24,641 nt of DNA, from assembly GCA_016934415.1 (NCBI GenBank), contig JAFGSW010000052.1, positions 1-24,641 of the forward strand. Reading direction: 5' to 3'. The DNA comes from Spirochaetales bacterium. Lineage in GTDB: Bacteria; Spirochaetota; Spirochaetia; SZUA-6; RPPD01. Within the stretch, counting starts at the first letter, position 1. Every line of letters starts with the position of its first letter. Made by a program: the position numbers and the translations under genes. Below, piece by piece: positions 2 through 23,405 of this stretch. The notes below the pieces were generated by a model. It was not told the origin of the DNA. It searched no databases and was given only the letters and a program-made list of their open reading frames with translations.

Positions 2-772
2 GCGGAGAACCAGGCCACCAACACGGCCGTGTACCAGAACGGCGGCTGCGGCGGGTCCAACAGCGAAATGATGCACTGCAACGGCTATATCGATTTCGGG
101 ACCATGTCCGGCGGCAGCTCGTCCTCGAGCTCGTCGAGCAGCTCATCCAGCAGTTCTTCAAGCAGCTCTTCGAGCAGTTCATCCTCCAGCTCTTCAAGCA
201 GCGGCGGCGGAACGAAATACATCACCTCGACGATCGAAGTGAACGGCGGTACGTATGACGGCGGCGGCCAGAGAATCATCGCCCAGGGGATGGGCGACGG
301 CAGCCAGGACGAAGACCAAAAGCCGATCTTCAAGGTCACGAACGGCACGGTCAAAAACGTCCGCATCGCCGCCCCGGGCTGCGACGGCATTCACGTGTAC
401 GGCAACTGCCGGATTGAAAACGTCGTCTGGGAAGACGTCGGCGAAGACGCCCTCACCGTGAAGGGCTCGGGAACCACCACCGTCTCCGGAGGCTCGGCGA
501 GCAGTGCCTCGGACAAAATCTTCCAACTCAACCAACAGTGCACCTTCACGGTGGAGAATTTCACGGCTTCCACGTTCGGCTGCTTCGTGCGGCAGAACGG
601 CGGGACGGACTTCGCCTGCACGATCTACGTGAACAACGTCACCCTGAACAATGGAAGTTACGGGGTCAGGACCGATTCCTCATCGACGAGAATCTATTAC
701 CGCAATGTGAACGCGTCCAATGTCAGCACATTGTGGAAAGTCCCGAACAGCTCACAGGTTCAGCCATACTAG
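2..772 (+). CDS. 5'-partial secreted pectate lyase, family PL3, with N-terminal carbohydrate-binding module and poly-Ser linker
   Basis: The frame is open from the window edge. The N-terminus (AENQATNTAVYQNGGCGGSNSEMMHCNGYIDFG) is about 93% identical at the DNA level to the CBM copy at 4357–4470. A 25-residue Ser run follows, then a parallel beta-helix region with PL3-like motifs (KPIFKV, GTVKNV, GCDGIHVYG, WEDVGEDALTVKG). Stop is TAG at 770–772. Confidence 0.7.
   Translation, partial: AENQATNTAVYQNGGCGGSNSEMMHCNGYIDFGTMSGGSSSSSSSSSSSSSSSSSSSSSSSSSSSSSGGGTKYITSTIEVNGGTYDGGGQRIIAQGMGDGSQDEDQKPIFKVTNGTVKNVRIAAPGCDGIHVYGNCRIENVVWEDVGEDALTVKGSGTTTVSGGSASSASDKIFQLNQQCTFTVENFTASTFGCFVRQNGGTDFACTIYVNNVTLNNGSYGVRTDSSSTRIYYRNVNASNVSTLWKVPNSSQVQPY
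112..200. repeat. Low-complexity poly-Ser linker coding repeat (mixed TCG/AGC/TCC/AGT codons)
   Basis: The linker SSSSSSSSSSSSSSSSSSSSSSSSS sits between the CBM and the catalytic domain. Its antisense reading gives the spurious ELLEELLDELL ORF at 85..390. Confidence 0.8.
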
Positions 773-980: not shown

Positions 981-2498
981 ATGACCGCTCAAAAAATACC
1001 GATGCTTATAATAATTCTTATTTTTTGCCTCATCGCCTCCTTCGATTGCGAGAGGCGTTTTTCGGCGAATACACAAACCGAAAAGGTAATTCTAGCCCGC
1101 TTCGATCCGGCGGCCTGGCTTCCCGAGACGGTGAAGGTCGACCGCCAATGCCGGCGGATAGCCTTTCTGACGCGATCAGGCGAGAAAAAACGGGTCGTGA
1201 TCGACGGCAGGGCCGGTCGAGATTACAATCAGATCTTGGACGGCACGCCCGTCTTCAGCCCGGACGGAAAACACGCGGCCTTTGCGGTTCTCACTAACGG
1301 CTCATGGCGTATGGTGTATGACTGGATCGAGCGGCGGCCGTATCGGGGAATCGGGTACGGTTCCCCCGTCTTCAGCCCGGACGGACGACACATCGCCTAT
1401 AACGCCGTTCGAGACGGCCGCTGGCGGGTCGTGCTTGACGCTACGGAGCTGGAAACGTTCGACTCCATTCCAAACGTCCCCGTCTTCAGTCCCGACGGCG
1501 GGCGTCTCGCCTACCTTGGGGAAAACGGTAAAAAAACATACGCCGTCGTCGACGGTGTTCGATACGGCCCCTATGACGGGCTCGATCCGGCGACCCGCTT
1601 CTTCGCCCCGGCGGGCGAATCGTTCGCCTTCGCCGCCGTGCGGGACGGCGTCTCATTCGTGGTATGGAACGGCGAGGAAGGGAAAAAGTATTCCGGCGTC
1701 ATGAAAGGGACTCCCCTCTTCAGCCCGGACGGGAAGCGATTGGCGTATGCGGCCAAAACCGGCGAAAAAACCGTCATCGTGGTCGATCGCGAAGAAGGCG
1801 CCCCGTACGACGGCATCGGCGTGGGGACGATATCATTCAGTCCGGACAGCCGGCACCTGGCCTACCTGGCTTTCACAAAATTCGGCGAAGCGCGGAGTTG
1901 GCGGCTGGTGATCGACGGCGGCGAGCAGCCGGCCTTCGACGCGGTCTCGTATTACGCCTTCAGCCCTGTCGGCGACCGAATCGCATACGCCGCCCGTTCC
2001 GGCGGCACGTGGTCGGTCATGGTCGACGGATCGAAGCGGGGAGCATACGACGATATCTTCACGGTGGCGTTCGGCCCGAAAGGCACACACGCCGTCTGGG
2101 GAGCACGTTCGGGCGGGAAATATTTCTACGTCGTCGACGGAAAACCGGGGGAGAAGTTCGACAGCCTTCACCCCGGGGGAATTATTTTCAATCCCGACGG
2201 CGACCGTTTCGCCTACGCGGCGGCGGACTCGAACGGCGCCGTCGCGGTCCTGGACGGCCGTCGGCAGGAGCCCTATCACGACGTGCGGTCGCTCCTCTTC
2301 AGCTCTGACGGCGTCCACCTCGCCTATATCGCCGGACGCGGCGAAAAGTGGTGTGTGGTGACGGACGGCATGCCGGGCGATTGGTACGACGGGATTCTCA
2401 CGGGTCCGGGGGGATTGTATTTTGATGGGAAAAGCACACTGCAATATTCTGCCATTGAAGGCGAAAAGATTGTGCACGTACGGGAAGTCTTGCGATAA
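981..2498 (+). CDS. Secreted PD40/TolB-like WD40-like beta-propeller repeat protein
   Basis: ATG at 981 has AAGGAAG 8 nt upstream. The N-terminus is hydrophobic (MLIIILIFCLIASF). At least 8 repeats of the [VI]FSPDG[KR](H/R)(L/I)AY motif are spaced about 45 aa apart (VFSPDGKHAAFA, VFSPDGRHIAYN, VFSPDGGRLAYL, LFSPDGKRLAYA and others). The ORF-track start at 720 overlaps the upstream gene and is rejected. Stop is TAA. Confidence 0.6.
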   Translation: MTAQKIPMLIIILIFCLIASFDCERRFSANTQTEKVILARFDPAAWLPETVKVDRQCRRIAFLTRSGEKKRVVIDGRAGRDYNQILDGTPVFSPDGKHAAFAVLTNGSWRMVYDWIERRPYRGIGYGSPVFSPDGRHIAYNAVRDGRWRVVLDATELETFDSIPNVPVFSPDGGRLAYLGENGKKTYAVVDGVRYGPYDGLDPATRFFAPAGESFAFAAVRDGVSFVVWNGEEGKKYSGVMKGTPLFSPDGKRLAYAAKTGEKTVIVVDREEGAPYDGIGVGTISFSPDSRHLAYLAFTKFGEARSWRLVIDGGEQPAFDAVSYYAFSPVGDRIAYAARSGGTWSVMVDGSKRGAYDDIFTVAFGPKGTHAVWGARSGGKYFYVVDGKPGEKFDSLHPGGIIFNPDGDRFAYAAADSNGAVAVLDGRRQEPYHDVRSLLFSSDGVHLAYIAGRGEKWCVVTDGMPGDWYDGILTGPGGLYFDGKSTLQYSAIEGEKIVHVREVLR

Positions 2499-2714: not shown

Positions 2715-2743
2715 TTGACAATCCTCGACCTAATAATAAAATC
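2715..2743 (+). promoter_or_regulatory. Possible sigma70-like promoter (TTGACA-16-TAAAAT) in AT-rich intergenic region
   Basis: TTGACA lies at 2715–2720 and TAAAAT at 2737–2742. The next start codon is about 300 nt downstream, which implies a long leader. Confidence 0.2.
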
Positions 2744-3045
2744 AATCACGTACTCGATCTTGCATTTAGTTATAAAAGCGGTATAAAAATCGTAAAAGCC
2801 TTACGCACCTTATTGCTGCAAGGAGCGTCACTCCTTCGCGGTTAGTGAGGAACTGATGAGTAAAGACCGAATCATGTTATCCGCCTCAATTTTCGTTTCC
2901 CTAAATGAAAAGCCATGGAACCAAGTCAAAAACATGATGTCGATACAAAAAGAGTTCATCATCGGTTTTGTAGAAGACCGAAAAGTGAAAGCCTAAAGGC
3001 GGAAACATAGACGGGAACGGCTTTAGGCGAAAAAGGGGGAAATCG

Positions 3046-4218
3046 ATGTTTAAAAAATTCCTAATTCTCCTGGCGCTCACCACTCTGGCGGTATTTGCAT
3101 GTCTACCGCCGAGCGTCAGCAACAATGACAATGGCGGCAGCAGGGCGACCAGCACGATCGTCGTGCGCGCCACAGGCGTCTCCGGCAGCGAGCAGATTCG
3201 GCTGACAGTCGGCGGCTCCACCGTCCAGACGTGGACGCTCACCACCGGCATGGCCAACTACACGGCCACCACCGACAACATCGGCGCGGTCCGCGTCGAG
3301 TTCTTCAACGACGGAAGCGGCCGGGACGTACAGGTGGACTACATCACCATGAACGGGACCACGCTGCAGGCCGAGGACCAGGCCGCCAACACCGGCTCCT
3401 GGAACTCGAGCGCGAACTCCTGCGGCGGCGTGAAATCCGAAATGTTGTACTGCAACGGCTCTATCGATTTCGGCAATGTATCCGGCGGCAGCTCTTCCAG
3501 CAGTTCCTCGAGCAGTTCGTCCTCAAGCTCATCAACCGGCAGCTCATCGAGCAGTTCCTCAGGCGGCACCTCAGTCTCCATCGCATGCGGCGGCAATTCG
3601 GCCGTGGGGAGTTTCCAAGCCGACCAGTACTACTCCGGCGGCAATACCTACCGCAACAGTAATACGATCAACGTCTCGCAAATCACCAGCAATCCGCCTC
3701 CGGCCGCACTCTTCAACAATGAGCGTTACGGCTCGACGACCTACACGATCCCCGGCTTCAGCGCGGGAAGCTCGTGTAGCGTGACGCTGTACTTCGCCGA
3801 GACCTATCACTCCTCGTCGGGGCAGCGGTCTTTCAATGTGTCCATCAATGGCAACCAAGTTCTCTCGAACTTCGACATCTACTCGGCCGCCGGCGGCCAA
3901 AACAAGGCCATCGCCCGGTCGTTCACGACCTCGGCCAACTCAAGCGGCCAAGTTGTGATCCAGTTAACAACCGTCAATGAGAATGCGAAGATCAACGGCA
4001 TCGCCGTACAGTCCGGCGGTGGCTCATCCTCCAGTTCTTCGAGCAGCTCGTCCAGCAGTTCGTCCAGCAGCTCATCCAGTACTTCGTCCAGCAGTTCGTC
4101 GACCGGTTCATCGAGTAGCTCGTCCGGCGGTGCCAACACCATCGTCGTCCGGGCCAAAGGCACGGCGGGCACGGAGTCCGTCAGCCTGAAAGTCGACTCG
4201 ACGACCGTCGGCACCTAG
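3046..4218 (+). CDS. Lipoprotein with CBM-X, poly-Ser linker, malectin/CBM57-like domain, poly-Ser linker and the first third of a second CBM-X (N-terminal portion of the interrupted CE15 gene)
   Basis: ATG at 3046 has AAGGGGG 7 nt upstream. The signal peptide carries a lipobox-like LAVFAC. The malectin-like segment is IACGGNSAVGSFQADQYY...YTIPGF...VTLYFAETYHSSSGQRSFNVSINGNQVLSNFDIYSAAGG...INGIAVQ. It ends at TAG. Confidence 0.6.
   Translation: MFKKFLILLALTTLAVFACLPPSVSNNDNGGSRATSTIVVRATGVSGSEQIRLTVGGSTVQTWTLTTGMANYTATTDNIGAVRVEFFNDGSGRDVQVDYITMNGTTLQAEDQAANTGSWNSSANSCGGVKSEMLYCNGSIDFGNVSGGSSSSSSSSSSSSSSSTGSSSSSSSGGTSVSIACGGNSAVGSFQADQYYSGGNTYRNSNTINVSQITSNPPPAALFNNERYGSTTYTIPGFSAGSSCSVTLYFAETYHSSSGQRSFNVSINGNQVLSNFDIYSAAGGQNKAIARSFTTSANSSGQVVIQLTTVNENAKINGIAVQSGGGSSSSSSSSSSSSSSSSSSSTSSSSSSTGSSSSSSGGANTIVVRAKGTAGTESVSLKVDSTTVGT
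3487..3570. repeat. Poly-Ser linker low-complexity repeat
   Basis: Region SSSSSSSSSSSSSSSSTGSSSSSSSGG, with an antisense spurious ELLEELL ORF. Confidence 0.8.
4021..4125. repeat. Poly-Ser linker low-complexity repeat
   Basis: About 35 consecutive Ser/Thr residues encoded with mixed Ser codons. Confidence 0.8.
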
Positions 4219-4233
4219 ACGCTCTCCACCTCC

Positions 4234-5685
4234 ATGACCAACTACACCTACTCGACCAATGCCAGTTCCGGCAACATCACCTTCAACTTCACGAATGACG
4301 CGTCCGGCCGCGACGTGCAGTGCGATTACATCACGGTGAACGGATCGACCCGCCAGGCCGAGAACCAAGCCACCAACACGGCCGTCTATCAGAACGGCGG
4401 CTGCGGCGGGTCCAATAGCGAAATGATGCACTGTAACGGCTACATCGATTTCGGAACCATTTCCGGCGGCGGCAGCTCGTCCTCAAGCTCATCAAGCAGC
4501 TCATCGAGTAGCTCGTCCAGCAGTTCATCCAGCAGCTCCTCCTCCAGCAGCAGCGGTTCGTGTAATATACCGTCAATGCCTTCGTATTCGTCTCTGCCGT
4601 CCAATTCCTATCTCCCCGATCCCTTTACGTTCATGAACGGCTCGCGCATGACCAGCAAAAGTCAATGGAGTTGTCGTCGCGCGGAGATAGCCGCGTTGGC
4701 CCAGGAATTTGAATTCGGCCAGAAACCGGCGGCACCTTCCAATGTCACGGGTTCCTACAGCAACAACAACATCACGGTCAATGTCACCGAAAACGGCAAA
4801 TCGATTTCATTCTCGTGTTCGATCACCTATCCTAGTTCAGGGACCAAGCCTTATCCCGCCATCATCGGGGTCGGAGGCGATTCGTTGAACACTTCGGCTA
4901 TCACGCAGATGGGAGTCGCCCTCATTAATTTCCCCAACAACGACATTGCGGCCCAGAACGATAGCGGTTCCCGTGGCCAGGGCAAGTTCTACACAATTTA
5001 CGGCAGCAACCACTCGGCCGGCGCGTTGATCGCCTGGGCATGGGGCGTCGACTGCTTGATCACCGCCCTTGAAAAGACCTCGGCGGCCAACATCAATCCG
5101 GCCAAACTCGGCGTCACCGGGTGCTCCCGCAACGGGAAAGGCGCTTTGGCCGTCGGCGCTTTCTGCGAACGAATCGCACTCACCATACCCCAGGAATCGG
5201 GAGCCGGCGGCGCGGCCAGCTGGCGCGTTTCCGATTGGCAAAAATCCCAGGGTCAGAACGTCCAGACGCTTTCGCAGATCGTGACGGAGAACTGCTGGTT
5301 CAGATCGAATTTCTCTCAGTTCGGCGGCACGGCCAACAAACTCCCGTTCGATCATCACATGATCGCAGCGCTCTGCGCACCGCGAGCCCTGCTCTTCATA
5401 GAAAACACACAAATGGAGTGGCTGGGAAACGTGAGCACGTGGACGACCGGCAATGCGGCCCATTACGTATGGGAAGCGCTCGGCGTGCCGGACAAGATGG
5501 GTTTCTCACAAGCCGGCCATTCCGACCATTGCGGTTTCCCTTCTTCCCAGCAGCCTGAGGTGACCGCGTACATCCAGAAATTCCTGCTCGGCGGCAGCGG
5601 CAACACGACCGTTATGAAAACGGACGGGAATCTGAATTTCGACAAGGCCAAATGGGTCAATTGGTCGGTTCTGTCCTTGAATTAA
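4234..5685 (+). CDS. CE15 glucuronoyl esterase catalytic domain preceded by the remainder of CBM-X and a poly-Ser linker (C-terminal portion of the interrupted gene)
   Basis: Carries the CE15 consensus GVTGCSRNGKGAL (G-C-S-R-x-G, nucleophile Ser), followed by PRALLFIEN and GHSDHCGF. There is no signal peptide after the ATG at 4234. Stop is TAA. Confidence 0.65.
   Translation: MTNYTYSTNASSGNITFNFTNDASGRDVQCDYITVNGSTRQAENQATNTAVYQNGGCGGSNSEMMHCNGYIDFGTISGGGSSSSSSSSSSSSSSSSSSSSSSSSSSSGSCNIPSMPSYSSLPSNSYLPDPFTFMNGSRMTSKSQWSCRRAEIAALAQEFEFGQKPAAPSNVTGSYSNNNITVNVTENGKSISFSCSITYPSSGTKPYPAIIGVGGDSLNTSAITQMGVALINFPNNDIAAQNDSGSRGQGKFYTIYGSNHSAGALIAWAWGVDCLITALEKTSAANINPAKLGVTGCSRNGKGALAVGAFCERIALTIPQESGAGGAASWRVSDWQKSQGQNVQTLSQIVTENCWFRSNFSQFGGTANKLPFDHHMIAALCAPRALLFIENTQMEWLGNVSTWTTGNAAHYVWEALGVPDKMGFSQAGHSDHCGFPSSQQPEVTAYIQKFLLGGSGNTTVMKTDGNLNFDKAKWVNWSVLSLN
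4474..4557. repeat. Poly-Ser linker low-complexity repeat
   Basis: A run of about 27 Ser residues before the CE15 domain. Confidence 0.8.
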
Positions 5686-5705: not shown

Positions 5706-5769
5706 TCGCCGGGGATGGGAAGAACAGCGGCGGCGACACCGCGTTCGAATATCCCCGGCGCTTTTTTAT
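5706..5769. terminator. Candidate bidirectional terminator between convergent genes
   Basis: Inverted repeat gccggggat ... atccccggc with T-runs on both sides (cgcttttttat on + and aaaaaaattttt on the other side). Confidence 0.35.
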
Positions 5770-5782
5770 CGAACCGATAATT

Positions 5783-7567
5783 TCAGCGAAATGATAGTTT
5801 CCATACACCCGTGCCATTCGTTCCGGCAAAGATATTCGTGCCGCTTATAGCGAGCGAATAGACGTCGGTCTGCTGCATTCCGGAAGCGGCCTCAGCCCAG
5901 CTTGCGCCATTGTCGGTTGAAAAGAAAACGCCCCCGCCGTATGTTCCGGCGAAGACTGTCGTACCGCCCGACGCGAGTGAATTGATTTGAGTGTACGTCA
6001 GACCTGTGTTCACCGGACGCCAGCTTGCGCCATTGTCGGTTGAAAGAAAAACGCCCCCGCCGGGAGTCGCGGCGAAAATATCGGCGCCGCTTACGGAGAG
6101 AGAAAAAATCTGGGTGTTTGTCAAACCCGAATTGACCGGAGCCCAGCTGACGCCGTTGTCTGTGGACAGGAAAACACCGCCGCCGAACGTGCCCGCGAAG
6201 ACATTCCCGCCGCTTGAGGCGAGACACCCGACATTAAGGTTTGTCAACCCGGAATTAGCCGCTCTCCAGCTTGAACCGTTATCGGTGGTCAGAAACACGC
6301 CGCCGCCGAACGTGCCCGCGAAGACATTCCCGCCGCTTGAGGCGAGAGAATAGACCTGAGGAGTGGAGAGGCCCGAATTGACCGCTCTCCAGCTCGCGCC
6401 ATTATCAGCGGAGCGAAAAACACCCCCGCCGTTGGTTCCGGCGAAGATATTCGTTCCACTGGCGGCCAGACAAAAGACATTCGGGTTGGTCAAACCGGAA
6501 TTCATTTCTTTCCAGTTATCGCCGCTGTCGTCGAAAAGAAATACACCCGCGCCGTGGGTTCCGGCAAAAAGGTTCGTCCCATTTCTGACAATAGTTCCGA
6601 CAAAAGTATTCTTCAAACCCGAATTGACGCCCTTCCAGCTTTTGCCATTGTCGGTCGAAAGAAATACTCCTCCGCCGTCGGTTCCGGCGAGAACGTTTCC
6701 ACCGCTTACCACGAGTGAGTAGACGAACCGATTCGTCAATCCCGAATCCATCGGGCGCCAGCTCCGCCCCCCATCGGCGGAATAAAAAACACCGCCGGCC
6801 GTTCCGGCGAAAATATCCGAGCCGTCGGCCGCGAGCGAGTAGACATTCATATTCATCACGCCTGAATTGGCCGCTTTCCAGCTTGTCCCATTGTTCCTGG
6901 ATTCAAAAATCCCGCCGCCGAACGTTCCGGCGAAAACCACCGCGCCGCCGGCGGCGAGTGAAATGACGTGCGTATTTGTCAGGCTTGAATTCACCGGACG
7001 CCAGCTGACACCGTTATCGGAAGAATGAAAAACGCCGCTGTTCTCGCTGCCGGCATAAACGTTCGTTCCGCTGACGGCGAGAGAGGAAACATCAATGCCC
7101 AAGCCTGAATCGACGACACTCAACCCCGATCCAGTGTCGGTAATAACAAACACCCCACCGCTGGTGCCTGCGAATACCTTCGTTCCATTGACTGCCAGGG
7201 CGAAGCAGAAAGAATCTTTCGGGATGGCGTCGATCAATTCCCAGCTTCCGCCGTTATCAGTTGAAACGAAAACACCGCCATTGGTTCCGGCGAAGATATT
7301 CGGGCCGCCGACGGCAAGGGAATAAATATTACTTCTGGTCAGTCCCGAATTGACGGCATTCCAGCTACTGCCATTGTCGGTGGAATGGTAAACGCCGCCG
7401 CCTTCAGTTCCGGCGAAAATATTCTTGCCCTTGACCGCAAAGCAATGGATATACCCGCCATAAGGTCCGTTGGTTTGAACCCATCGCGGGGAAAGTTGAT
7501 TGGTGCGTGGACAACTCGGGGTAGACAACAGGGCGCCGAGCAAGAGAAGTTGAACTATCTTTTTCAT
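5783..7567 (-). CDS. Secreted BNR/Asp-box (Ycf48/sortilin-like) beta-propeller repeat protein
   Basis: ATG (revcomp) at 7567 has GGAG upstream. The signal peptide is MKKIVQLLLLGALLSTPS. About fourteen 41-aa repeats each contain FAGTxGGGVFxSTDNGxSWxxVNSGLTN. Stop is TGA. The plus-strand ORFs in this span are antisense artefacts of the repeats. Confidence 0.75.
   Translation of the reverse strand: MKKIVQLLLLGALLSTPSCPRTNQLSPRWVQTNGPYGGYIHCFAVKGKNIFAGTEGGGVYHSTDNGSSWNAVNSGLTRSNIYSLAVGGPNIFAGTNGGVFVSTDNGGSWELIDAIPKDSFCFALAVNGTKVFAGTSGGVFVITDTGSGLSVVDSGLGIDVSSLAVSGTNVYAGSENSGVFHSSDNGVSWRPVNSSLTNTHVISLAAGGAVVFAGTFGGGIFESRNNGTSWKAANSGVMNMNVYSLAADGSDIFAGTAGGVFYSADGGRSWRPMDSGLTNRFVYSLVVSGGNVLAGTDGGGVFLSTDNGKSWKGVNSGLKNTFVGTIVRNGTNLFAGTHGAGVFLFDDSGDNWKEMNSGLTNPNVFCLAASGTNIFAGTNGGGVFRSADNGASWRAVNSGLSTPQVYSLASSGGNVFAGTFGGGVFLTTDNGSSWRAANSGLTNLNVGCLASSGGNVFAGTFGGGVFLSTDNGVSWAPVNSGLTNTQIFSLSVSGADIFAATPGGGVFLSTDNGASWRPVNTGLTYTQINSLASGGTTVFAGTYGGGVFFSTDNGASWAEAASGMQQTDVYSLAISGTNIFAGTNGTGVWKLSFR
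5900..7450. repeat. Tandem ~123-bp coding repeats (about 14 copies) with near-perfect 50-bp identical stretches
   Basis: The stretch ccgccgccgaacgtgcccgcgaagacattcccgccgcttgaggcgaga occurs identically near 6177 and 6297. Periodic GGGVF/STDNG codon blocks run throughout. Confidence 0.65.
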
Positions 7568-7817: not shown

Positions 7818-7847
7818 TTGACCATTACGCTCCATCGTGGTAATAAT
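7818..7847 (+). promoter_or_regulatory. Candidate sigma70-like promoter TTGACC-17/18-TAATAA(T) for the ECF sigma gene
   Basis: TTGACC lies at 7818–7823 and TAATAA/AATAAT at 7841–7847. The TTG used as ORF-track start at 7818 lies in the -35 box, which favours the ATG at 7857 as the start. Confidence 0.25.
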
Positions 7848-7856
7848 CTTTTCAGC

Positions 7857-8396
7857 ATGCCTTCCGTAAAAAACGTCCAGGATTTCATGAGCCTCTATCA
7901 CTCGTACTATCCGAAAATTTACGGCTTCTTTTATCGCGACTGCCTGCACCGCGAGACGGCGGAGGACCTCGCCGCCACCACCTTTACGAAAGCCCTCCAA
8001 TTCATCCAGCTCAAAAAAAAGGAAATCATCAATTTCAATGCCTGGATTTATCGAATTGCAACAAATGAGCTGTATTCGTATCTTAAACAATTGAGGAGAA
8101 GGCGGGCACGTATCGTCGAAAACACCGAAAAGCACCTCATCGACGGACTGCCGGACGAGACGCAGCGGCCGGACGAGTGCGCGGACTTTTGGCCGGTAAG
8201 GGATGCAGTCGCGCAGCTTCCTCCGGAAAAGCGGGTGCTGATCGAGATGCACTTTTTCGAAAAGATGGATTACAGCGAGATGGCGGAAGCGCTTAAATGC
8301 AAGGAAGCCACCCTGCGCTCGAAAATCCACCGAACTCTCAAATTACTGCGGACGTTCTTGAACAAGGGGGATCGCGAACGGGAGAACGGGCCATGA
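7857..8396 (+). CDS. ECF (sigma-70 family, group 4) RNA polymerase sigma factor
   Basis: Region-2-like segment is YYPKIYGFFYRDCLHRETAEDLAATTFTKAL and region-4-like segment is LPPEKRVLIEMHFFEKMDYSEMAEALKCKEATLRSKIHRTL. The TGA stop overlaps the next start (ATGA at 8393–8396). The start could instead be the TTG at 7818. Confidence 0.8.
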   Translation: MPSVKNVQDFMSLYHSYYPKIYGFFYRDCLHRETAEDLAATTFTKALQFIQLKKKEIINFNAWIYRIATNELYSYLKQLRRRRARIVENTEKHLIDGLPDETQRPDECADFWPVRDAVAQLPPEKRVLIEMHFFEKMDYSEMAEALKCKEATLRSKIHRTLKLLRTFLNKGDRERENGP

Positions 8397-10048
8397 AAAA
8401 GAACGAGAACGACAGACTCTACGAGCGGCTGAAAAACCTCATGGTGCCCGAAATCGCCAACCCGGAGCACGAACGCGCCTTGCGTGAACGATTGGAAAAG
8501 ATGATCGCCGAACAGGAGAGGCCCAGACCCGCCATCCGTCCTTTTTCCGTGGTCGCCGGCGCTTTGGCGGCCGCGGCCGCCGCGGCGGTCGCTCTTGTCC
8601 TCGTTCTCCGCCCGCCGGGCGGCGCGGCCGTCGACCTGGCGGCCGACGAGAGGAGCGCGGTCGCCGCCCCGGCGGTACTGAGTTTGAGCGGCGGCGATGT
8701 GACCGCGCAGTCGGGCGGCGTCACCGAGCGGCTCGCGCTCGGAAGCGCGCTCAAACCCGGCGATACGGTCTCCGTTTCCGGACACGCGCCCTGCGAGTTC
8801 CAGATCGACGAAAGAGTATTTCTCCGCCTCGATCCTTCTTCTGCATTTGTGTTCCGGGGTGCTTGGTCCGCCGCGGATGGCACTCATGTTTCCGTGGAGT
8901 TGCGATCGGGCACCGCCGTTGTGCATGACCTGAATACAGACGGTTATCTGACTGTGTATACGCCCTTCGCGGTTTTTCAGACCGTGGGTACGGCGTTTCT
9001 GGTGAGGGTGGAACACGGCCGGTCCGCCGCTTTGGCGGTCGGTGAAGGCCGCGTGCGAGTCCTTTCCCTTCCCCCGCGAACCGCAATCCTCAGAGAGGGT
9101 GTTGGAGCGGGCCGGTCGGTATCGGTGGATTCAAGCGGCGCCCTCACGGACCGGGGCGCCGTTTCCGAGGAGGATGGGCTGAAGATCGACGAGATTCGAA
9201 AAATCGCTTTTCTTCCCGATCCGTCACGGAGACGTTCGGTGCGCGTCACGGTGGTAAGTGAACCGGCTGACGCCACCATCGCCGTCGACGGCGTTCCGCG
9301 CGGGCGGGGGACGCTCTTTTTCCTGGCCGCACCGGGTGTCCGTTATACGGTGACGGCCTCCGGTCCGGGCCGTGAAACTCAAAGCCGGACCGAATCCTTT
9401 CAGGAAGATAAAACGATCGCCTTCCGGCTCAAGCGAACGATCGGCCCGCCGAAAACGCCCGAGCGAACTTCCGTTCCCGAAACACGCCGTGAGATCGAAG
9501 CGAGTCCCGTTCCCGGCCGGGACGGAGGAGCGGTCGTTCTGCCGACGGCCTCACCGGAACTCACCGGCCGCGTCTCCGATTGGCACGGCCTGGCTCCGGT
9601 GATTGCGGATCCTTCAGGCGACATGAACGCCTCCGACGCGGGCACGGACATTTCCGACGTTTTCCTGGCGCACGACGAAACGTTCCTCTTCTTCGGGATC
9701 AAGTTCGAGAACGGAACCCTCGATCCAGGCGTCCAGCCCGAGATCGCACTCTCCCTCGCTCCCGCTTCCGGTCGGCGGGTGGAGCTCTCGGGCCGGACCG
9801 CAGACAAGAAATGGCTGGCCGAAGTTAAAATCTTCAAAGACGGCGCACTTGCGTCCACTTCCGACGCGGCAGGTAAAATCGTCGTCGGCGACGGTTTCCT
9901 GGAAATGAAACTCCCTCTTGAGGCCGTCCTCTCGGCCGGCACGCCGGGCGAGATTTACAAAGCCAAAGCCACCCTTACGATCCAGAAATACGGCCGACTC
10001 CGGGTTATCGCCGATGAGACGGAAGCGCGGACGGTTCTCTTTTACTAG
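8393..10048 (+). CDS. Membrane-spanning anti-sigma factor with periplasmic FecR-like region, PEGA domain and C-terminal domain of unknown function
   Basis: Translationally coupled to the sigma gene. A single TM helix (FSVVAGALAAAAAAAVALVLVL) follows about 60 cytoplasmic residues. PEGA-like segment is RVTVVSEPADATIAVDGVPRGRGTLFFLAAPGVRYTVTASGPG. About 170 C-terminal residues are unassigned. Stop is TAG. Confidence 0.7.
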   Translation: MKKNENDRLYERLKNLMVPEIANPEHERALRERLEKMIAEQERPRPAIRPFSVVAGALAAAAAAAVALVLVLRPPGGAAVDLAADERSAVAAPAVLSLSGGDVTAQSGGVTERLALGSALKPGDTVSVSGHAPCEFQIDERVFLRLDPSSAFVFRGAWSAADGTHVSVELRSGTAVVHDLNTDGYLTVYTPFAVFQTVGTAFLVRVEHGRSAALAVGEGRVRVLSLPPRTAILREGVGAGRSVSVDSSGALTDRGAVSEEDGLKIDEIRKIAFLPDPSRRRSVRVTVVSEPADATIAVDGVPRGRGTLFFLAAPGVRYTVTASGPGRETQSRTESFQEDKTIAFRLKRTIGPPKTPERTSVPETRREIEASPVPGRDGGAVVLPTASPELTGRVSDWHGLAPVIADPSGDMNASDAGTDISDVFLAHDETFLFFGIKFENGTLDPGVQPEIALSLAPASGRRVELSGRTADKKWLAEVKIFKDGALASTSDAAGKIVVGDGFLEMKLPLEAVLSAGTPGEIYKAKATLTIQKYGRLRVIADETEARTVLFY

Positions 10049-12589: not shown

Positions 12590-13786
12590 ATGAAAACCTA
12601 CGAAGAGATCAATGCCAAGATCGAAGCAAAGAAAGCGGTGGTTCTCACCGCCGAGGAGATCATCGACTATGTTGAAAAAAAGGGCCTGCGGGCCGCCGCC
12701 GAAGAGGTCGACGTGGTCACCACGGCCACCTTCGGGCCGATGTGCTCGTCGGGCTGTTTCCTCAACTTCGGGCACTCGAGCCCGCGCATCCGGATCTCCG
12801 AGGCCTGGCTCGACGACGTGCGCGCCTACTGCGGCATCGCGGCGGTGGACGTGTACCTCGGCGCCACCGAGCTCCGACAGGGAGACCCGGCCAATCTCTA
12901 CCATCCCGGCGAATTCCGATTCGGCGGCGCGCACGTCATCGAAAAGCTCGTGCGGGGCGAGAAGGTCCAGCTCTTCGGCCTGTCCTACGGCACCGACTGC
13001 TACCCCCGCCGCGAGATCCGCACCTGGTTCACGCTCAAGGACTTAAACCAGGCGATCATGACCAATCCCCGCAACTGCTACCAGAATTACAACGTGGCCG
13101 TCAATTCGTCCGATCGGACCATCTACACCTACCTGGGTCAGCTCAAGCCCGGCCTTAAAAACGCCACCTACTGTTCGGCGGGCCAGCTGTCGCCGCTCCT
13201 GAACGATCCGTTCTACGAAACGATCGGCGTGGGCACGCGGGTGTGGCTCGCCGGCGCGCAGGGGATCGTCTACGGCGAGGGAACCCAGCACGCGGGCGCC
13301 GTGGACCGCGGCGGGAACGGAGTGCCCGTGGAGGGCGGAGGCACACTCGCCCTCACCGCCGACATGAAGGAGATGGACCCGCGCTGGGTGCGCGCGGTGA
13401 GCCTGACCGGCTACGGAGTGTCCCTTTCCCTCGGCGTCGGCATTCCCATCCCCGTCCTCAACAAGGAGATTCTCAAGCGCGCCGCCGTCCGGGACCGTGA
13501 CATCCTGGCCACCGTCGTCGATTACGCGACCGACTACCCGAACCGGACGGGAAAAACTCTCGGGCGAGTGACGTACGAGGAGCTCCGTTCGGGCGAGATC
13601 AGCCTGGGTGGGAAAAAAGTGGAAGCGGGCTCCCTCTCCTCGTACAGGTACGCCCTGGAAATCGCCGAGCTCCTCAAGGCTGAAATCGAAGCCGGCCGCT
13701 TCACCGTTTCCCGGCCCGTGAGGCGGTTGCCGGTCGACCGGAGTTTCCGGCCGCTCGCCATCAAGGAAAGCGAACGCTATGGCTGA
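12590..13786 (+). CDS. Homocysteine biosynthesis protein, COG1900/DUF39 family (L-aspartate-semialdehyde sulfurtransferase-like)
   Basis: About 400 aa. Conserved Cys/Gly-rich blocks (TATFGPMCSSGCFLNFGHS, GTDCYPRREI, ATYCSAGQLSPLLNDPFYETIGVGTRVWLAGAQG) match the archaeal/anaerobe COG1900a proteins. The 8-bp overlap with the next gene links them to the NIL-ferredoxin. Confidence 0.75.
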   Translation: MKTYEEINAKIEAKKAVVLTAEEIIDYVEKKGLRAAAEEVDVVTTATFGPMCSSGCFLNFGHSSPRIRISEAWLDDVRAYCGIAAVDVYLGATELRQGDPANLYHPGEFRFGGAHVIEKLVRGEKVQLFGLSYGTDCYPRREIRTWFTLKDLNQAIMTNPRNCYQNYNVAVNSSDRTIYTYLGQLKPGLKNATYCSAGQLSPLLNDPFYETIGVGTRVWLAGAQGIVYGEGTQHAGAVDRGGNGVPVEGGGTLALTADMKEMDPRWVRAVSLTGYGVSLSLGVGIPIPVLNKEILKRAAVRDRDILATVVDYATDYPNRTGKTLGRVTYEELRSGEISLGGKKVEAGSLSSYRYALEIAELLKAEIEAGRFTVSRPVRRLPVDRSFRPLAIKESERYG

Positions 13787-14201
13787 AACCGCCTTCACCA
13801 AAAAATATTTCCTCTATTTTCCCAAGTGTGAAACGGAAAAACCGATCGTCTACCACCTCGTCAAGGATTACAACCTGATGGTGAATATTTTCCGCGCCAA
13901 GGTGACGCCCGAGGAGGAGGGCTATCTCGTCCTCGATCTCACCGGCACGGCGGGCGACATTGCGCGCGGGCTTGAGTTCGTCCGCACCTTCAACGTGACG
14001 GTGAACGAGCAGTCGATCGGGCTGCGCTGGGACGCCGAGCGCTGCACCCATTGCGGGAACTGCCTCCCCCACTGCCCGACCAGGGCGCTTGACTTTAAAG
14101 ACCGCACCACGAGGGAAGTCAGGTTCGACGCGGCAGCGTGCATCGAGTGCTTAAGCTGCGTCGCCAACTGCCCCTTTTCCGCCTGTGCCTCGGTCTTTTA
14201 G
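13779..14201 (+). CDS. NIL-domain 4Fe-4S ferredoxin partner of COG1900 (homocysteine biosynthesis)
   Basis: AAGGAAAG RBS precedes the ATG. The N-terminal NIL-like domain is followed by two ferredoxin cluster motifs (CTHCGNCLPHCP and CIECLSCVANCP). Stop is TAG. Confidence 0.8.
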   Translation: MAETAFTKKYFLYFPKCETEKPIVYHLVKDYNLMVNIFRAKVTPEEEGYLVLDLTGTAGDIARGLEFVRTFNVTVNEQSIGLRWDAERCTHCGNCLPHCPTRALDFKDRTTREVRFDAAACIECLSCVANCPFSACASVF

Positions 14202-14214
14202 CGGGCGTCGGGTC

Positions 14215-14967
14215 ATGCAACCGAGGCGCGCCTATCGGCGGTTCGACTATCGCGGCGCCCGCTACCGGATCTCCTCGTCCCACCACACTCTCATCACGGA
14301 TGAGCTCAAACGCCTGCGGACCCTGCTCGAGATATACCGCGAAACCGATCCGGCCTTCGCGCACTCGCTTGAGCCCGTGCGGGTGAAGCCGTATGCTCCC
14401 GAAATCGCGCGCCTCATGGCCGCTGCCGGGGAAGCGGCGGGTGTCGGGCCGATGGCGGCCGTGGCGGGCGCCTTCGCCGAGGCCGCGGCGCGCGCCGCGC
14501 TCGCGGCCGGCGCGCGGGAGGCCGTCGTCGAAAACGGCGGCGATATCTTCATCGCGTCGCCGGAGGAAGTGGTGGTGGGAATCTACGCGCGCGGCAATCC
14601 GCTTTCGCGCCGCCTCGCCTTCCGCGTCGCGGGCGCCGACACGCCCCTCGCCGTCTGCTCCTCGTCCGGAGTCATGGGCCATTCCTTGAGCCGGGGAACA
14701 TGCGACCTGGCCGTCGTCGTCGCCCGGGACGCCGCCTTGGCAGACGCGGCCGCCACCCGCGCCGCCAACCTGGTGAAAACCAAGGCCGACGTGGATAAGG
14801 CGCTGAAGGTGGTGGAGGAAATCAAAGGCGTGTCCGGCGCGTTCATCCTGATGGAAGACGCCGTCGGTATGACCGGCATGCTCCCCGAGATAGTCAAACA
14901 CGAGGATCCCCGGCTCCTTGAAAAAATCCCCGCCGATGAAAGCTGGGATGGATTGATTTCATATTGA
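14215..14967 (+). CDS. UPF0280/ApbE-like protein (COG2122-type), third component associated with sulfide-dependent Cys/Hcy biosynthesis
   Basis: About 250 aa with a Gly/Ala-rich GPMAAVAGAFAEAAARAA core. Assigned by size, composition and the conserved gene neighbourhood with COG1900 and NIL-Fd. A GTG at 14185 would be an alternative start overlapping the upstream gene. Stop is TGA. Confidence 0.55.
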   Translation: MQPRRAYRRFDYRGARYRISSSHHTLITDELKRLRTLLEIYRETDPAFAHSLEPVRVKPYAPEIARLMAAAGEAAGVGPMAAVAGAFAEAAARAALAAGAREAVVENGGDIFIASPEEVVVGIYARGNPLSRRLAFRVAGADTPLAVCSSSGVMGHSLSRGTCDLAVVVARDAALADAAATRAANLVKTKADVDKALKVVEEIKGVSGAFILMEDAVGMTGMLPEIVKHEDPRLLEKIPADESWDGLISY

Positions 14968-18301: not shown

Positions 18302-19401
18302 AAATCACCGAACAGGCGAAGAAATTCATTCATAATCTCCCTTCATTCCGATTCATCATCGACTTTAAATCGAATCCGCTTACTCTTTTTCTCAATGTCC
18401 TCTTTTTCATTGGTGGAGTCCTTGTAGAAATCGCCATATATCCGAAGGTTCCGATCTTTTACCTTCTCTGCATCGGTTTGGGCGCTCTCGTCGCCGCCGG
18501 CGCCATCGCCGTCCTACCCAAATGGACGACCTCCATCAAGGTGCTGGCCCTGGGGTGGCTCGCCGCTTACTTCCTGCTCGACACCACCTACGTCCCCGTA
18601 CTCGCCGTCACCTCCTTCGGCCTCCTCTTCTCAGCGTGCTTCCAGCTCGCAGACCATTGGGAACGAGCCATCATCCTCCGCTTCGGGAAGTTCTCGCGAA
18701 TCAAGGGCCCGGGATTTTTCCTCATCTGGCCCGTCATGGAGCGGATCGCCGATTACGTCGACACCCGCATCCGGTCCACCGATTTCTCCGCGGAAACCAC
18801 CCTCACCCACGATACCGTGCCGGTCAATGTCGACGCCATCGCCTTCTGGATGATCTGGGACTCGAAAAAGGCGATCCTCGAGCTCGAGAACTTTCTCGAC
18901 GCGGTCATCCTCTCCGCCCAGACCGCGCTCCGCGACGCGATCGGCAAGCACGACCTGGCCACGCTCCTTTCCGAGCGCGACCGCCTGGGACGCGAAATTC
19001 AGGAGATCCTCGAGGCCAAGACATCGCCCTGGGGCATCACCATCCTCTCCATCGAGATCCGGGAGATCATCATCCCCAAGGAGCTCGAGGACGCGATGAG
19101 CAAGCGCGCCCAGGCCGAGCGCGAACGCCAGTCGCGCGTCATTCTCGGCACCGCCGAGGCGGAAATCGCGGAGAAATTCGCGCAGGCCGCGGAACGCTAC
19201 AAGAACAACCCCACCGCGCTTCATTTGCGCGCCATGAACATGATCTATGAAGGACTGAAAAAGAACGGCTCCATCATGCTCGTTCCCTCGTCCGCATTGG
19301 AAACGATGTCGCTGGGGACCGTGCTGGGCGCGACCGCCCTGGAAAAAGCCGAAAAGGCCGAAACCGGCAAAGAAAAGGAGAATTCCGATGGTCAAGGTTA
19401 A
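18298..19401 (+). CDS. SPFH/band-7 (stomatin/prohibitin-like) protein with about 110-aa N-terminal polytopic membrane domain
   Basis: AAGGAGGAG RBS precedes the ATG. Four predicted TM helices come before the SPFH core (RAIILRFGKFSRIKGPGFFLIWPVMERIADYVDTRIRS...). A coiled-coil Ala/Glu-rich tail follows (AQAERERQSRVILGTAEAEIAEKFAQAAERYK). Confidence 0.8.
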   Translation: MKITEQAKKFIHNLPSFRFIIDFKSNPLTLFLNVLFFIGGVLVEIAIYPKVPIFYLLCIGLGALVAAGAIAVLPKWTTSIKVLALGWLAAYFLLDTTYVPVLAVTSFGLLFSACFQLADHWERAIILRFGKFSRIKGPGFFLIWPVMERIADYVDTRIRSTDFSAETTLTHDTVPVNVDAIAFWMIWDSKKAILELENFLDAVILSAQTALRDAIGKHDLATLLSERDRLGREIQEILEAKTSPWGITILSIEIREIIIPKELEDAMSKRAQAERERQSRVILGTAEAEIAEKFAQAAERYKNNPTALHLRAMNMIYEGLKKNGSIMLVPSSALETMSLGTVLGATALEKAEKAETGKEKENSDGQG

Positions 19402-20068
19402 TCACGTCGTCAAGAATTACACGATCGGCAAGCTCGAGGTGCACGCCCTGCGCGGGGTGGATCTCGAAATCAAGGACGGCGAGTTCATGTCGATCGCCGG
19501 CCCCTCCGGGTCGGGGAAAACCACGCTCTTGAATCTCATCGGCTGCCTCGACGCCTGCACGGGGGGGGACATCCTCATCGACGGCGAGTCAATCGGGGGC
19601 AAGAAGCGCGACGAGCGCGCCCTCCTGCGGCGGCGGAAGATCGGTTTCGTCTTCCAATCGTTCAACCTCATTCCGGTGCTCACCGCCTACGAGAACGTCG
19701 CCTTCGCCCTTTCCCTTTTGAAGACGGGGCCGGGCGAAACCAGGGAGCGGACGATGAAGATCCTCGAGGAGGTGGGGCTCACGGGGCTGGAGAAACGCTT
19801 TCCCAACGAGCTCTCGGGCGGGCAGCAGCAGCGGGTGGCCGTGGCCCGCGCCCTGGTGAAAAAGCCGACGCTCGTGCTGGCCGACGAGCCGACCGCCAAC
19901 CTCGATTCGGACACCGGCCGGGAGATCCTCAAGCTCATGGAAGACCTGAACCGGACGCACGGCACCACCTTCGTGTTCTCCACCCACGATCCCATGGTCA
20001 TGGACTTCGCTCACCGGCTCGTGTTGCTTCACGACGGGGCGATCGTGTCGGACAAGGCGAAAAAGTAA
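19388..20068 (+). CDS. ABC transporter ATP-binding protein, LolD/MacB/FtsE-like
   Basis: Walker A is GPSGSGKTT, the signature is LSGGQQQRVAVARAL, Walker B is LVLADEPTANLD, and the H-loop is STHD. It overlaps the upstream gene by 14 bp. Confidence 0.9.
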   Translation: MVKVNHVVKNYTIGKLEVHALRGVDLEIKDGEFMSIAGPSGSGKTTLLNLIGCLDACTGGDILIDGESIGGKKRDERALLRRRKIGFVFQSFNLIPVLTAYENVAFALSLLKTGPGETRERTMKILEEVGLTGLEKRFPNELSGGQQQRVAVARALVKKPTLVLADEPTANLDSDTGREILKLMEDLNRTHGTTFVFSTHDPMVMDFAHRLVLLHDGAIVSDKAKK

Positions 20069-20080
20069 AGGAGGCGAAGA

Positions 20081-21340: not shown

Positions 21341-21374
21341 CGCGGGGATCGGGTGAAAGAAAAGGAGAGGACCG

Positions 21375-22637: not shown

Positions 22638-22661
22638 ATCGATTTTATTATGGAGGAATAT

Positions 22662-23405
22662 ATGACGATAAAAAGATCGATCTGGCTGGCGCTTCTCGTG
22701 GTATTGCCTGCGACGGTTTTCGCCCAAATGACGGCGGAGGAAGTCGTGCGGCGGTTGGAAAAAAACGAGGTGTACACGAGCTCCAAGAGCTCGGGAAAGC
22801 TTCTCATCACCAACCAATTCGGGACCAAGACGAAAACCTTTACCGCGGCCTCTCAGGGCGCCGAAAAGCTTCTCCTGGAGTTCACCAACAAGGAGGAACG
22901 GGGCCAGAAGATCCTGCGCCTGAACGACCAGATCTTCGTCTATTACCCGCGTTCCAACAGCGTGGTCAGCATGCAGGGCGGGGCGCTCAAGGACAGCATC
23001 TTCGGTTCGGACTTCACCTATGAGGACCTCACGGGCGAGAAGAGCATCCTCAACCTGTACAAGGTCGAATTCGCCCAACCGTCCACGGAAACGGTCGACG
23101 GCGTTCAGTGCTACCATTTAAGGCTCACGGGCATCACTTCCGTCGCCTATCCCTTCCAGGAGCTCTGGGTGGAGACCGCGCGTTTGGTCCGGCGCAAGGC
23201 CGTATTTTTCTCGCTCACCCGCGAGCCGCTCAAGGAAATGGAAGTAAAGGAGACGAAGGAAGTTTCCGGGAAGATCTTCCCCTCCCGTTTCGTCATCACC
23301 GATCTCATCAAGAAAAATTCCTCGACCGAGTTCGCGCTGGACTCGATCCAGATCAACCCGCGCCTCGACGCCCGCCAGTTTTCCCTGGAGAGGTTGAAAT
23401 TTTGA
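22662..23405 (+). CDS. Periplasmic LolA-like (outer-membrane lipoprotein-sorting/carrier-like) protein
   Basis: GGAGG RBS lies 6 nt before the ATG at 22662 (an alternative ATG is at 22650). Signal peptide is MTIKRSIWLALLVVLPATVFAQ. About 225 mature residues are predicted to be beta-rich. The family call is tentative and rests on size, the signal peptide and placement next to a Lol-like ABC. Confidence 0.45.
   Translation: MTIKRSIWLALLVVLPATVFAQMTAEEVVRRLEKNEVYTSSKSSGKLLITNQFGTKTKTFTAASQGAEKLLLEFTNKEERGQKILRLNDQIFVYYPRSNSVVSMQGGALKDSIFGSDFTYEDLTGEKSILNLYKVEFAQPSTETVDGVQCYHLRLTGITSVAYPFQELWVETARLVRRKAVFFSLTREPLKEMEVKETKEVSGKIFPSRFVITDLIKKNSSTEFALDSIQINPRLDARQFSLERLKF

Follow-up and report, generated by a model that had tools for sequence, protein, structure and literature searches.

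The gene starting at position 3046 very probably (about 90%) encodes a membrane-anchored, multi-modular glucuronoyl esterase of known type, interrupted by an in-frame stop codon; this estimate concerns which domains are present and that the frame is interrupted, as read from the sequence, and not the origin of the stop. From the ATG at 3046, translation and Pfam matches give in frame the order lipoprotein signal, CBM60, poly-Ser linker, malectin, poly-Ser linker, CBM60, poly-Ser linker and CE15 (Table 1). The earlier note had described this domain order, which is real (PF16841, PF11721 and PF22244 along the frame), as that of one open reading frame spanning 3046-5685. Its reader missed a TAG codon, which splits the frame into two.

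Gene layout, export signal and neighbouring genes

All features lie in the window, the whole stretch of 24,641 nucleotides that was analysed. A Shine-Dalgarno-like sequence precedes the start codon, and a terminator-like hairpin followed by a U-run lies downstream of the CE15 domain. The sigma-70-like promoter candidate is a consensus match only, its count not above that in shuffled sequences (two found vs 1.5 expected). It lies about 300 nt ahead of the start codon. An Rfam scan of the window matched only a tRNA-Met gene and nothing in the 550-nt upstream region. The small ORFs in that region are unremarkable.

Table 1. Positions of the features in the window
Feature	Position	Strand	Basis or remark
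Upstream partial gene: CBM60 tail (2-100), poly-Ser, PL3 pectate lyase ending in TAG	2..772	+	Pfam and similarity
Sigma-70-like promoter candidate, TTGACA, 16-nt spacer, TAAAAT	2715..2742	+	11/12 consensus matches
Shine-Dalgarno-like AAGGGGG	3033..3039	+	read from sequence; 6 nt before ATG 3046; kept in the L016 5′ cassette
Lipoprotein signal peptide MFKKFLILLALTTLAVFAC	3046..3102	+	lipobox Cys19 codon at 3100-3102
ORF1, lipoprotein with CBM60 and malectin, 390 aa	3046..4218	+	translation
CBM60 module 1, intact, aa 34-148	3145..3489	+	PF16841, E 1.6e-11, 44.9 bits
Poly-Ser linker 1	3490..3564	+	translation; Ser-codon repeat family, 12-nt start-to-start spacing
Malectin domain (CAZy family CBM57), aa 177-318	3574..3999	+	PF11721, E 2.9e-21
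Poly-Ser linker 2	4014..4134	+	translation; repeat family D1
CBM60 module 2, holding the stop codon	4138..4461	+	PF16841, E 4e-11, 43.7 bits, stop read as W
In-frame TAG in place of TGG, the conserved Trp codon of CBM60 (vCBM60 chain position 30)	4216..4218	+	sequence and alignment
ORF2, 483 aa: C-terminal three quarters of CBM60-2, poly-Ser linker 3, CE15	4234..5685	+	translation
CE15 glucuronoyl esterase catalytic domain, fungal-like type	4543..5676	+	PF22244, E 1.2e-98
Pfam core of CE15	4777..5484	+	PF22244
Nucleophile Ser codon (codon 694) within GCSRNGKG	5125..5127	+
Terminator-like hairpin, then U-run	5707..5767	+	-37.9 kcal/mol, z-score -3.5, 0/200 shuffles fold as well

The N-terminus carries the lipobox LALTTLAVFAC with Cys19, together with Lys3 and Lys4, and matches as a regular expression a PROSITE-type lipobox pattern (PS51257). 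Basic residues near the N-terminus and a hydrophobic stretch are present, the lipobox Cys falls within the expected range of positions 15-35, and the lipoprotein signal proposed earlier is upheld by the match at Cys19. A diderm host is supported by genes for a LolA-like protein, an FtsX-type permease and an ABC ATPase in the same window. The intact protein would be exported, lipidated at Cys19 and held at the diderm cell envelope. It may be exposed at the surface rather than anchored on the periplasmic side.

The partial gene upstream ends in a PL3 pectate lyase domain (PF03211, E 1.7e-46, 158.8 bits vs a cut-off of 25). At the DNA level, its CBM60 tail and that of module 2 are 92% identical. 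The fusion of one module type to both the CE15 esterase and the PL3 pectate lyase, reported in the earlier note, is thus seen in both genes, and the functional reading as a shared targeting module for plant cell walls holds at the level of predicted domains. Recurrence of the module three times in the window was claimed as well. Two of these copies are complete, while the third consists of the last ~35 residues only, since the window starts inside it. For one neighbouring gene, the best named relatives are Spirochaetaceae and Bacteroidales MAGs (76-77%). The CE15 locus is absent from L010-L013, the closest relative of the DUF39 gene, though the downstream genes are shared.

CBM60, malectin and CE15 modules

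The module of ~110 aa, which had been considered unplaceable in any named CBM family, is by profile and alignment a CBM60, a known xylan-binding family. The HMM search proposed in the earlier note assigns both full copies to this existing family, above the curated gathering cut-off of PF16841 (44-45 bits vs 28.2). The module matches vCBM60 (PDB 2xfd/2xhh) with an E-value of 1.5e-36 (query residues 3-113 vs chain residues 3-112). Over the full length, C-terminal motif included, module 1 is 61% and module 2 64% identical to vCBM60, and the two modules share 54% with each other (tblastn). The same module is found in over 100 database proteins that bear a PF16841 annotation. A new CBM family outside all named ones had been suggested on the sole basis that the module could not be placed by eye; it gained no support on testing, and its probability is negligible. 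Because the module is recognized as CBM60 by Pfam and by its match to vCBM60, a type of hit that the earlier note had itself held to speak against its proposal, there is no new family. The fold question is already answered, since a crystal structure matches at this identity over the full length.

vCBM60 (PDB 2XFD/2XFE/2XHH/2XHJ) is the founding CBM60 structure (Montanier et al., 2010, as cited in PMC9107766 and PMC4444583). It resembles the window modules in its length of ~110 aa, in its Cys pair, in the conserved Asp/Asn/Glu columns and in the C-terminal CGG..SE.(L/M).CNG.I.FG, and it is likewise appended to plant-cell-wall enzymes via Ser-rich linkers. The upstream RDVQ motif and the invariant C-terminal motif pointed out earlier are found in both full window modules, as RDVQ(V/C)DYIT and CGG..SEM(L/M)xCNGxIDFG. 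In an alignment of 151 modules, the columns that never vary (N55, D61, D65, E77, N82, S97, E98 and others) are present in both, as are the near-invariant D56, the Cys pair C91/C102, G104 and I106. The sole exception is W30 of module 2, the stop codon, which also sets this module apart from vCBM60. At chain position 86, vCBM60 and module 1 carry Trp, whereas modules 2 and 3 carry Tyr, the more frequent residue across the family (94/151 modules). W99 of vCBM60 is replaced by Met in the window modules. PMC9107766, citing Montanier et al. (2010), reports binding of CBM60 to xylans, galactans and cellulose. Ca2+-dependent docking of the intact protein to xylan or further beta-1,4 glycans would be the task of the two CBM60 modules.

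The malectin domain scores 76.6 bits against PF11721 (cut-off 23), in agreement with the malectin/CBM57 domain named earlier. Pfam Malectin is equivalent to CAZy family CBM57 (PMC4444583). Solved malectins (2jwp/2k46) match over ~75 aa with an E-value of 3.5e-7. Malectin had been regarded as rare in bacterial CE15 enzymes, yet malectin and CE15 occur together in at least 11 distinct 90%-identity clusters among the database matches, a list biased by the query's own modules. In the intact protein, the malectin module would bind a glycan. In relatives, this malectin/CBM57 subfamily is attached to GH10, GH11, GH30, GH43, GH62, CE1-like and pectin methylesterase modules. The literature searched yielded no binding data on bacterial CBM57.

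The C-terminal domain is a fungal-like CE15 glucuronoyl esterase by predicted function, with a PF22244 (GCE_fung) score of 330 bits vs a cut-off of 27. Matches to Trichoderma reesei Cip2 (3pic) and to StGE2 have E-values of 1.9e-128 and 4.5e-111, respectively. Cip2 (3PIC) is 54% identical to the window domain over 368 aligned positions. The GCSRNGKG nucleophile motif and the PQESGAGG and HC motifs are conserved with Cip2 and StGE2 (4G4G). The Ser of GCSRNGKG aligns with the sole residue that differs between StGE2 4g4g and the Ser-to-Ala mutant 4g4i. Assignment of Glu and His as members of the catalytic triad follows the literature (PMC6069808). Like the fungal enzymes, the window domain aligns without the large insertions that characterize most bacterial CE15. 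Groups of bacterial CE15 that lie near the fungal enzymes have been described (PMC5329029). In a scan of a genome collection, the best match to the core was 80% identical. TtCE15A (6hsw) represents a distant CE15 clade and reaches 58 bits against the window protein. Fungal CE15 enzymes carry CBM1 and are secreted free, whereas the window enzyme is bacterial, targeted by CBM60 and CBM57 and equipped with a predicted lipoprotein anchor. In an intact protein, the CE15 domain would act through a Ser-His-Glu triad and hydrolyse the ester bonds that link 4-O-methyl-glucuronic acid side chains of xylan to lignin alcohols.

The in-frame stop codon

A G-to-A substitution at one base breaks the frame by turning TGG into TAG, where the second CBM60 has a nearly invariant core Trp. 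Trp occupies this column in 145 of 151 CBM60 modules, and TGG is found at the position in all four closest DNA homologues (window module 1, L014, L015 and L016). Translation as written ends after residue 390, yielding a lipoprotein with CBM60 and malectin only. The CE15 catalytic domain is not joined to its export signal by uninterrupted coding sequence. Downstream of the TAG, 1,467 nt are free of further stops and frameshifts. Module 2 is 91-94% identical to the modules in L014-L016, with a dN/dS of 0.08-0.15 against its relatives, so the interruption is recent or artefactual. The exact 28-nt pattern around the stop (TRG) had no match in a metagenome scan. The stop is either a very recent nonsense, i.e. 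inactivating, mutation or a base error of sequencing or assembly, and the balance leans towards a real mutation.

An error in the consensus is the main competitor and a real possibility, though the less probable of the two. The A at 4217 would then stem from sequencing, polishing or assembly, the gene would be intact in the organism, and the full 879-aa lipoprotein esterase would be made. The 483 downstream codons are fully open with all conserved CE15 motifs kept, and module 2 is under strong purifying selection relative to its relatives, both as expected of an intact gene. Such an error may have been favoured by many near-identical CBM60 copies in genome and community; CBM60 occurs here as a repeat in several copies, one of which the start of the contig cuts into. 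On the other hand, substitution errors are rare in consensus assemblies, and this assembly does not look error-prone, since no other gene of the 24.6-kb window has a frameshift or an internal stop. Local mis-mapping within the window is not evident either, because the sequence surrounding the stop shares only ~65% identity with module 1, and the only near-identical copy in the window, in the PL3 gene, is cut by the window edge before the stop region.

A real mutation remains the favoured origin of the stop. That the split is functional is very improbable. The TAG would then define a stand-alone surface glycan-binding lipoprotein, with CE15 made separately or as a second isoform by occasional read-through or re-initiation. 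ORF1 alone would be a plausible binding protein with signal, intact CBM60 and intact malectin, and an ATG follows 15 nt after the stop. Against this, the stop cuts a folded module at a core Trp that is conserved, so that ORF1 keeps 28 residues of CBM60 as a stub and ORF2 a truncated CBM60, and all relatives have TGG at its position. The ATG at 4234 is preceded by ctccacctcc, which is no Shine-Dalgarno sequence, and ORF2 has no signal peptide, so an esterase for an extracellular substrate would be stranded in the cytoplasm. A real TAG that is tolerated or exploited, with the 390-aa plant-glycan-binding lipoprotein and low-level read-through esterase as two products of one gene, is very improbable.

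Routine read-through of a recoded or suppressed TAG was rejected as next to impossible: nothing specific favours it, TAG ends the adjacent PL3 gene ~13 residues past its Pfam domain match and the FecR-like gene 8297..10048 (TAG at 10046-10048), and the window's only tRNA gene, the tRNA-Met, is no suppressor. We know of no genetic code that reads TAG as Trp.

Related fusions and significance

The architecture had been called unusual. The domain order is real, but it reshuffles existing combinations such as CBM60-CE15 and GH11-malectin-CE15. Fusions of CE15 with CBM60 and of CE15 with malectin are both common in metagenomes. Metagenomic or genomic bacterial examples are CBM60x2-BACON-CE15 (P0001), malectin-BACONx2-CE15 (P0003, P0005), GH11-malectin-CE15 (P0004), CBM60-CE15 (P0009), CBM60-CBM10-CE15 (P0022) and CE15-malectin-dockerin (P0028), as well as CBM2-CBM60-CE15 (P0015) from Microbulbifer litoralis. 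Their fungal-like CE15 cores are 60-79% identical to that of the window in the best local alignment for those listed from P0001 to P0022, and 41% for P0028. The window gene lacks the BACON domain of P0001, P0003 and P0005. Among the 120 best database hits, the exact combination CBM60, malectin, CBM60 and CE15 was not seen, and none (0/120) carried CBM60 and malectin together on one CE15 protein.

Teredinibacter turnerae E7_MBN_00239 combines GH11, CBM60, CBM5, CBM57 and two CE1 modules, and its closest homologue TERTU_3447 carries GH11 and CE15 (PMC12055684). Like the window gene, E7_MBN_00239 has CBM60 and CBM57 on one xylan-directed enzyme. The link to CE15 lies in the homologue of strain T7901, TERTU_3447, whose CBM content is not spelled out in PMC12055684. 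Unlike the window gene product, the Teredinibacter proteins are secreted multicatalytic enzymes with GH11.

The L016 gene (JGI Ga0315542_1027546) encodes a lipoprotein signal, two CBM60 modules and a SASA-type esterase. Its 5′ cassette (Shine-Dalgarno sequence, signal peptide and CBM60-1) shares 85% protein and ~90% DNA identity with the window gene, and the identity between its second CBM60 and module 2 is 91%. In contrast to the window gene, it lacks the malectin insert, carries SASA (PF03629) instead of CE15 as catalytic module, and has an unbroken frame with TGG where the window has its stop. The same related metagenome also has CBM60 fused to GH62 and GH11. The shared front end and these fusions point to CBM60 as the standard targeting module of the lineage for xylan-active enzymes.

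Owing to the interruption, annotation pipelines would call two ORFs or a pseudogene here and would mis-annotate the CE15 half as a cytoplasmic enzyme. Beyond cataloguing, the locus matters little: it is an ordinary modular plant-cell-wall esterase gene. It adds a further example of bacteria shuffling CBM60 and CBM57/malectin onto hemicellulose- and pectin-active catalytic domains, and another case of a fungal-like CE15 core moving between distant phyla of bacteria. The one wider biological point on which it bears is what bacterial CBM57 modules bind; for this subfamily that may be a plant-wall ligand, which would be worth defining.

Domain composition of the CE15 gene

Translation from ATG 3046 and Pfam searches yield, in order, a lipobox signal, a module of ~110 aa, poly-Ser, malectin, poly-Ser, a second copy of the module, poly-Ser and a CE15 domain. 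This order, with poly-Ser linkers, agrees with the earlier note, and both full module copies carry the reported motifs RDVQxDYIT and CGG..SEM(L/M)xCNGxIDFG. The third reported copy (bases 2-100) comprises only the last ~35 residues, the rest lying outside the window. It is joined to a PL3 pectate lyase, as claimed. The CBM60 tail of this PL3 gene (1-118) matches that of the second module (4356-4473) at 92% DNA identity, and the contig probably broke at the repeated module.

The promoter-like element and the hairpin with U-run give the CE15 locus the appearance of a single transcription unit. Three antisense ORFs of 107-111 aa, two of which cross the Ser-codon runs of linkers 2 and 3, are taken as artefacts of the GC-rich gene. 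Both flanking beta-propeller proteins have lipoprotein-like N-termini. The ECF sigma factor and the FecR-domain protein are a possible sigma/anti-sigma pair adjoining the CAZyme genes. The ABC transporter group resembles a lipoprotein-sorting system, which suggests a diderm host with lipoprotein sorting.

Features of the CE15 locus and its surroundings
Feature	Position	Strand	Basis or remark
Partial gene: CBM60 tail, poly-Ser, PL3 pectate lyase	2..772	+	PF03211, E 1.7e-46
Beta-propeller protein, PD40 repeats	981..2498	+	FSPDG motif at ~117-nt spacing; flanks CE15 gene
Promoter-like TTGACA-16-TAAAAT	2715-2742	+	consensus match
Shine-Dalgarno-like AAGGGGG	6 bases upstream of ATG 3046	+	sequence
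N-terminal lipoprotein signal MFKKFLILLALTTLAVFAC	starts at ATG 3046; lipobox Cys19	+	regex match
CBM60 module 1	3145..3489	+	44.9 bits
CBM60 module 2	4138..4461	+	43.7 bits
Antisense ORF	3571..3900	-
Antisense ORF	3879..4214	-	crosses Ser-codon run
Antisense ORF	4108..4431	-	crosses Ser-codon run
In-frame TAG	4216-4218	+	within module 2
Strong hairpin + U-run	5707-5767	+	3' of stop codon
Beta-propeller protein, BNR/Sortilin-Vps10 type	5783..7567	-	flanks CE15 gene
ECF-type sigma factor (regions 2 and 4), then FecR-domain protein	7818..10048	+
HcyBio/DUF39, NIL-ferredoxin, AbpE-like genes	12590..14967	+
ABC ATPase, two FtsX-type permeases, LolA-like protein	19388..23405	+	grouped

The repeated module had been regarded as unclassified and as a possible new family of cell-wall targeting modules on CE15 and PL3 enzymes. 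The targeting function fits the results. The novelty does not, since profile and PDB searches assign the module to CBM60. Both copies exceed the cut-off of the Pfam model PF16841 (28.2 bits), and the founding CBM60 structure, vCBM60 (2XFD/2XFE/2XHH/2XHJ), is matched with E 1.5e-36. This alignment spans residue 3 to the final residue of the crystallised module, including the C-terminal CGG..SE..CNG.I.FG segment, which the Pfam model covers only in part. Modules 1 and 2 share 61% and 64% identity with vCBM60, respectively, and 54% with each other. Both keep the invariant or near-invariant CBM60 residues N55, D56, D61, D65, E77, N82, S97, E98, G104 and I106 as well as the Cys pair C91/C102 (2xfd chain numbering). 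Position 86 is aromatic, with Trp in module 1 and Tyr in modules 2 and 3, and both residues are common among CBM60 modules (94 with Y, 53 with W). The reported ligands of CBM60 are xylans, galactans and cellulose (PMC9107766, citing Montanier et al. 2010), and the family is reported to employ Ca2+ when it binds sugars (Figure 1 legend of PMC4444583).

The malectin domain (PF11721, 76.6 bits, cut-off 23) matches solved malectins with E 3.5e-7; the family corresponds to CAZy CBM57 (PMC4444583). The CE15 domain (PF22244 'GCE_fung', E 1.2e-98) has its nearest matches in two fungal enzymes, Cip2 (E 1.9e-128; 54% identity) and StGE2. Well-studied bacterial enzymes such as OtCE15A and TtCE15A are far more distant (58-66 bits). 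Bacterial CE15 groups near fungal ones have already been described (PMC5329029). The catalytic Ser is conserved: that of GCSRNGKG aligns with the sole residue differing between wild-type StGE2 (4g4g) and its Ser-to-Ala variant (4g4i). The Glu- and His-bearing motifs are kept.

The premature stop in module 2

The frame 3046-5685 is not one ORF, as the earlier note had it; the in-frame TAG in module 2 had been missed. It aligns with a TGG of module 1 ('GT*TLST' versus 'QTWTLTT'). Trp occupies this column in 145 of 151 CBM60 modules, comprising 148 from database matches, vCBM60 and the two window modules. A metagenome contig scan detected modules 91-94% identical to module 2 in one JGI metagenome, Ga0315542 (L014, L015, L016). 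All three, like module 1, read GGCACC-TGG-ACGCT, where module 2 reads GGCACC-TAG-ACGCT. These alignments trace the interruption to one G-to-A substitution in the codon of a conserved core Trp.

In the host organism, TAG appears to act as a normal stop; it also terminates the neighbouring PL3 gene, shortly past its domain, and the FecR-like gene. The window holds a single tRNA gene, for tRNA-Met. A restart at the first downstream ATG (4234) would follow the bases ctccacctcc, which hold no Shine-Dalgarno sequence, and this ORF begins mid-CBM60 fold without a signal peptide. The 483 codons of this ORF are free of additional stops and frameshifts and retain every CE15 motif, and dN/dS between module 2 and its closest relatives is 0.08-0.15. 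Accordingly, the interruption either arose very recently or reflects a base error. A real mutation is slightly favoured, because no other gene across the 24.6-kb window appears damaged. In the alignment with L014, L015 and L016, a small sample, ~9 substitutions are unique to module 2, four of them G-to-A including the stop-creating one; this may reflect damage, error or chance. Read literally, the gene would yield and export a product of no more than its first 390 residues, and it is possibly a pseudogene.

Related architectures and module exchange

A search of 5.8 billion proteins, with fusions confirmed by Pfam scans, recovered the same fungal-like CE15 core with CBM60 as CBM60x2-BACON-CE15, CBM60-CE15 and CBM60-CBM10-CE15, and CBM2-CBM60-CE15 occurs in cultured Microbulbifer litoralis. 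With malectin, the core forms malectin-BACONx2-CE15, GH11-malectin-CE15 and CE15-malectin-dockerin. At least 11 clusters pair CE15 with malectin, in a match list biased by the query's own modules that gives no frequency; the pairing is thus not rare, contrary to the earlier note. CBM60 and malectin were not found together on one CE15 protein among the 120 best matches, so the exact arrangement is new, if only trivially. Teredinibacter turnerae does have a GH11/esterase protein with both CBM60 and CBM57; CE15 is present on the T7901 homologue of this protein (PMC12055684). According to a CE15 review, CBM fusions are 'not uncommon', and in bacteria CBM2 is the most frequent partner (PMC10154605). 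GH10, GH11, GH30, GH43, GH62, CE1-like esterases and a pectin methylesterase carry malectin modules with 73-78% identity to the one in the window (P0020-P0042); several of these proteins share one 163,769-bp ENA contig. For CBM57 modules of bacteria, a literature search turned up no data on binding.

CE15 cores 75-80% identical occur in Bacillota-labelled MAGs (L001; L003 with CBM3 and a Pro/Thr linker) and, without a CBM, in a Sedimentisphaerales-labelled MAG (L002). Cores 62-64% identical occur in a Bacillota MAG (L005) and two Spirochaetales MAGs (L004, L006). This pattern across phyla suggests that the core moved by lateral transfer, acquiring lineage-specific linkers and CBMs. The HcyBio/DUF39 region is syntenic with contigs from JGI metagenomes (L010-L013) at 90-95% identity; the upstream CAZyme region of L010 differs, with a malectin protein, a hybrid sensor kinase and CBM6-CE4.

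In the intact protein, lipidation at Cys19 would retain the enzyme at the envelope and the long Ser linkers would provide reach. The CBM60 modules may use Ca2+ to attach to xylan or another beta-1,4 glycan, the malectin module may bind some glycan, and CE15 would cleave glucuronoyl-lignin esters.

Metagenome Ga0315542 also holds a 95%-identical copy of the neighbouring DUF39/HcyBio gene. Its CBM60 partners are GH62 (three CBM60 copies, L014), GH11 (GH11-x-CBM60, L015) and a SASA-type esterase (CBM60x2-SASA, L016, Ga0315542_1027546). The latter, from a related population, has the entire 5' cassette of Shine-Dalgarno sequence, lipoprotein signal and first CBM60 in common with the CE15 gene (window 3020-3490 versus L016 170-715; 85% protein, ~90% DNA identity). 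These partners and the shared cassette mark CBM60 as the routine targeting module of xylan- and pectin-active lipoprotein enzymes in the host lineage, where new enzymes arise when the accessory and catalytic modules that follow a shared front end are exchanged.
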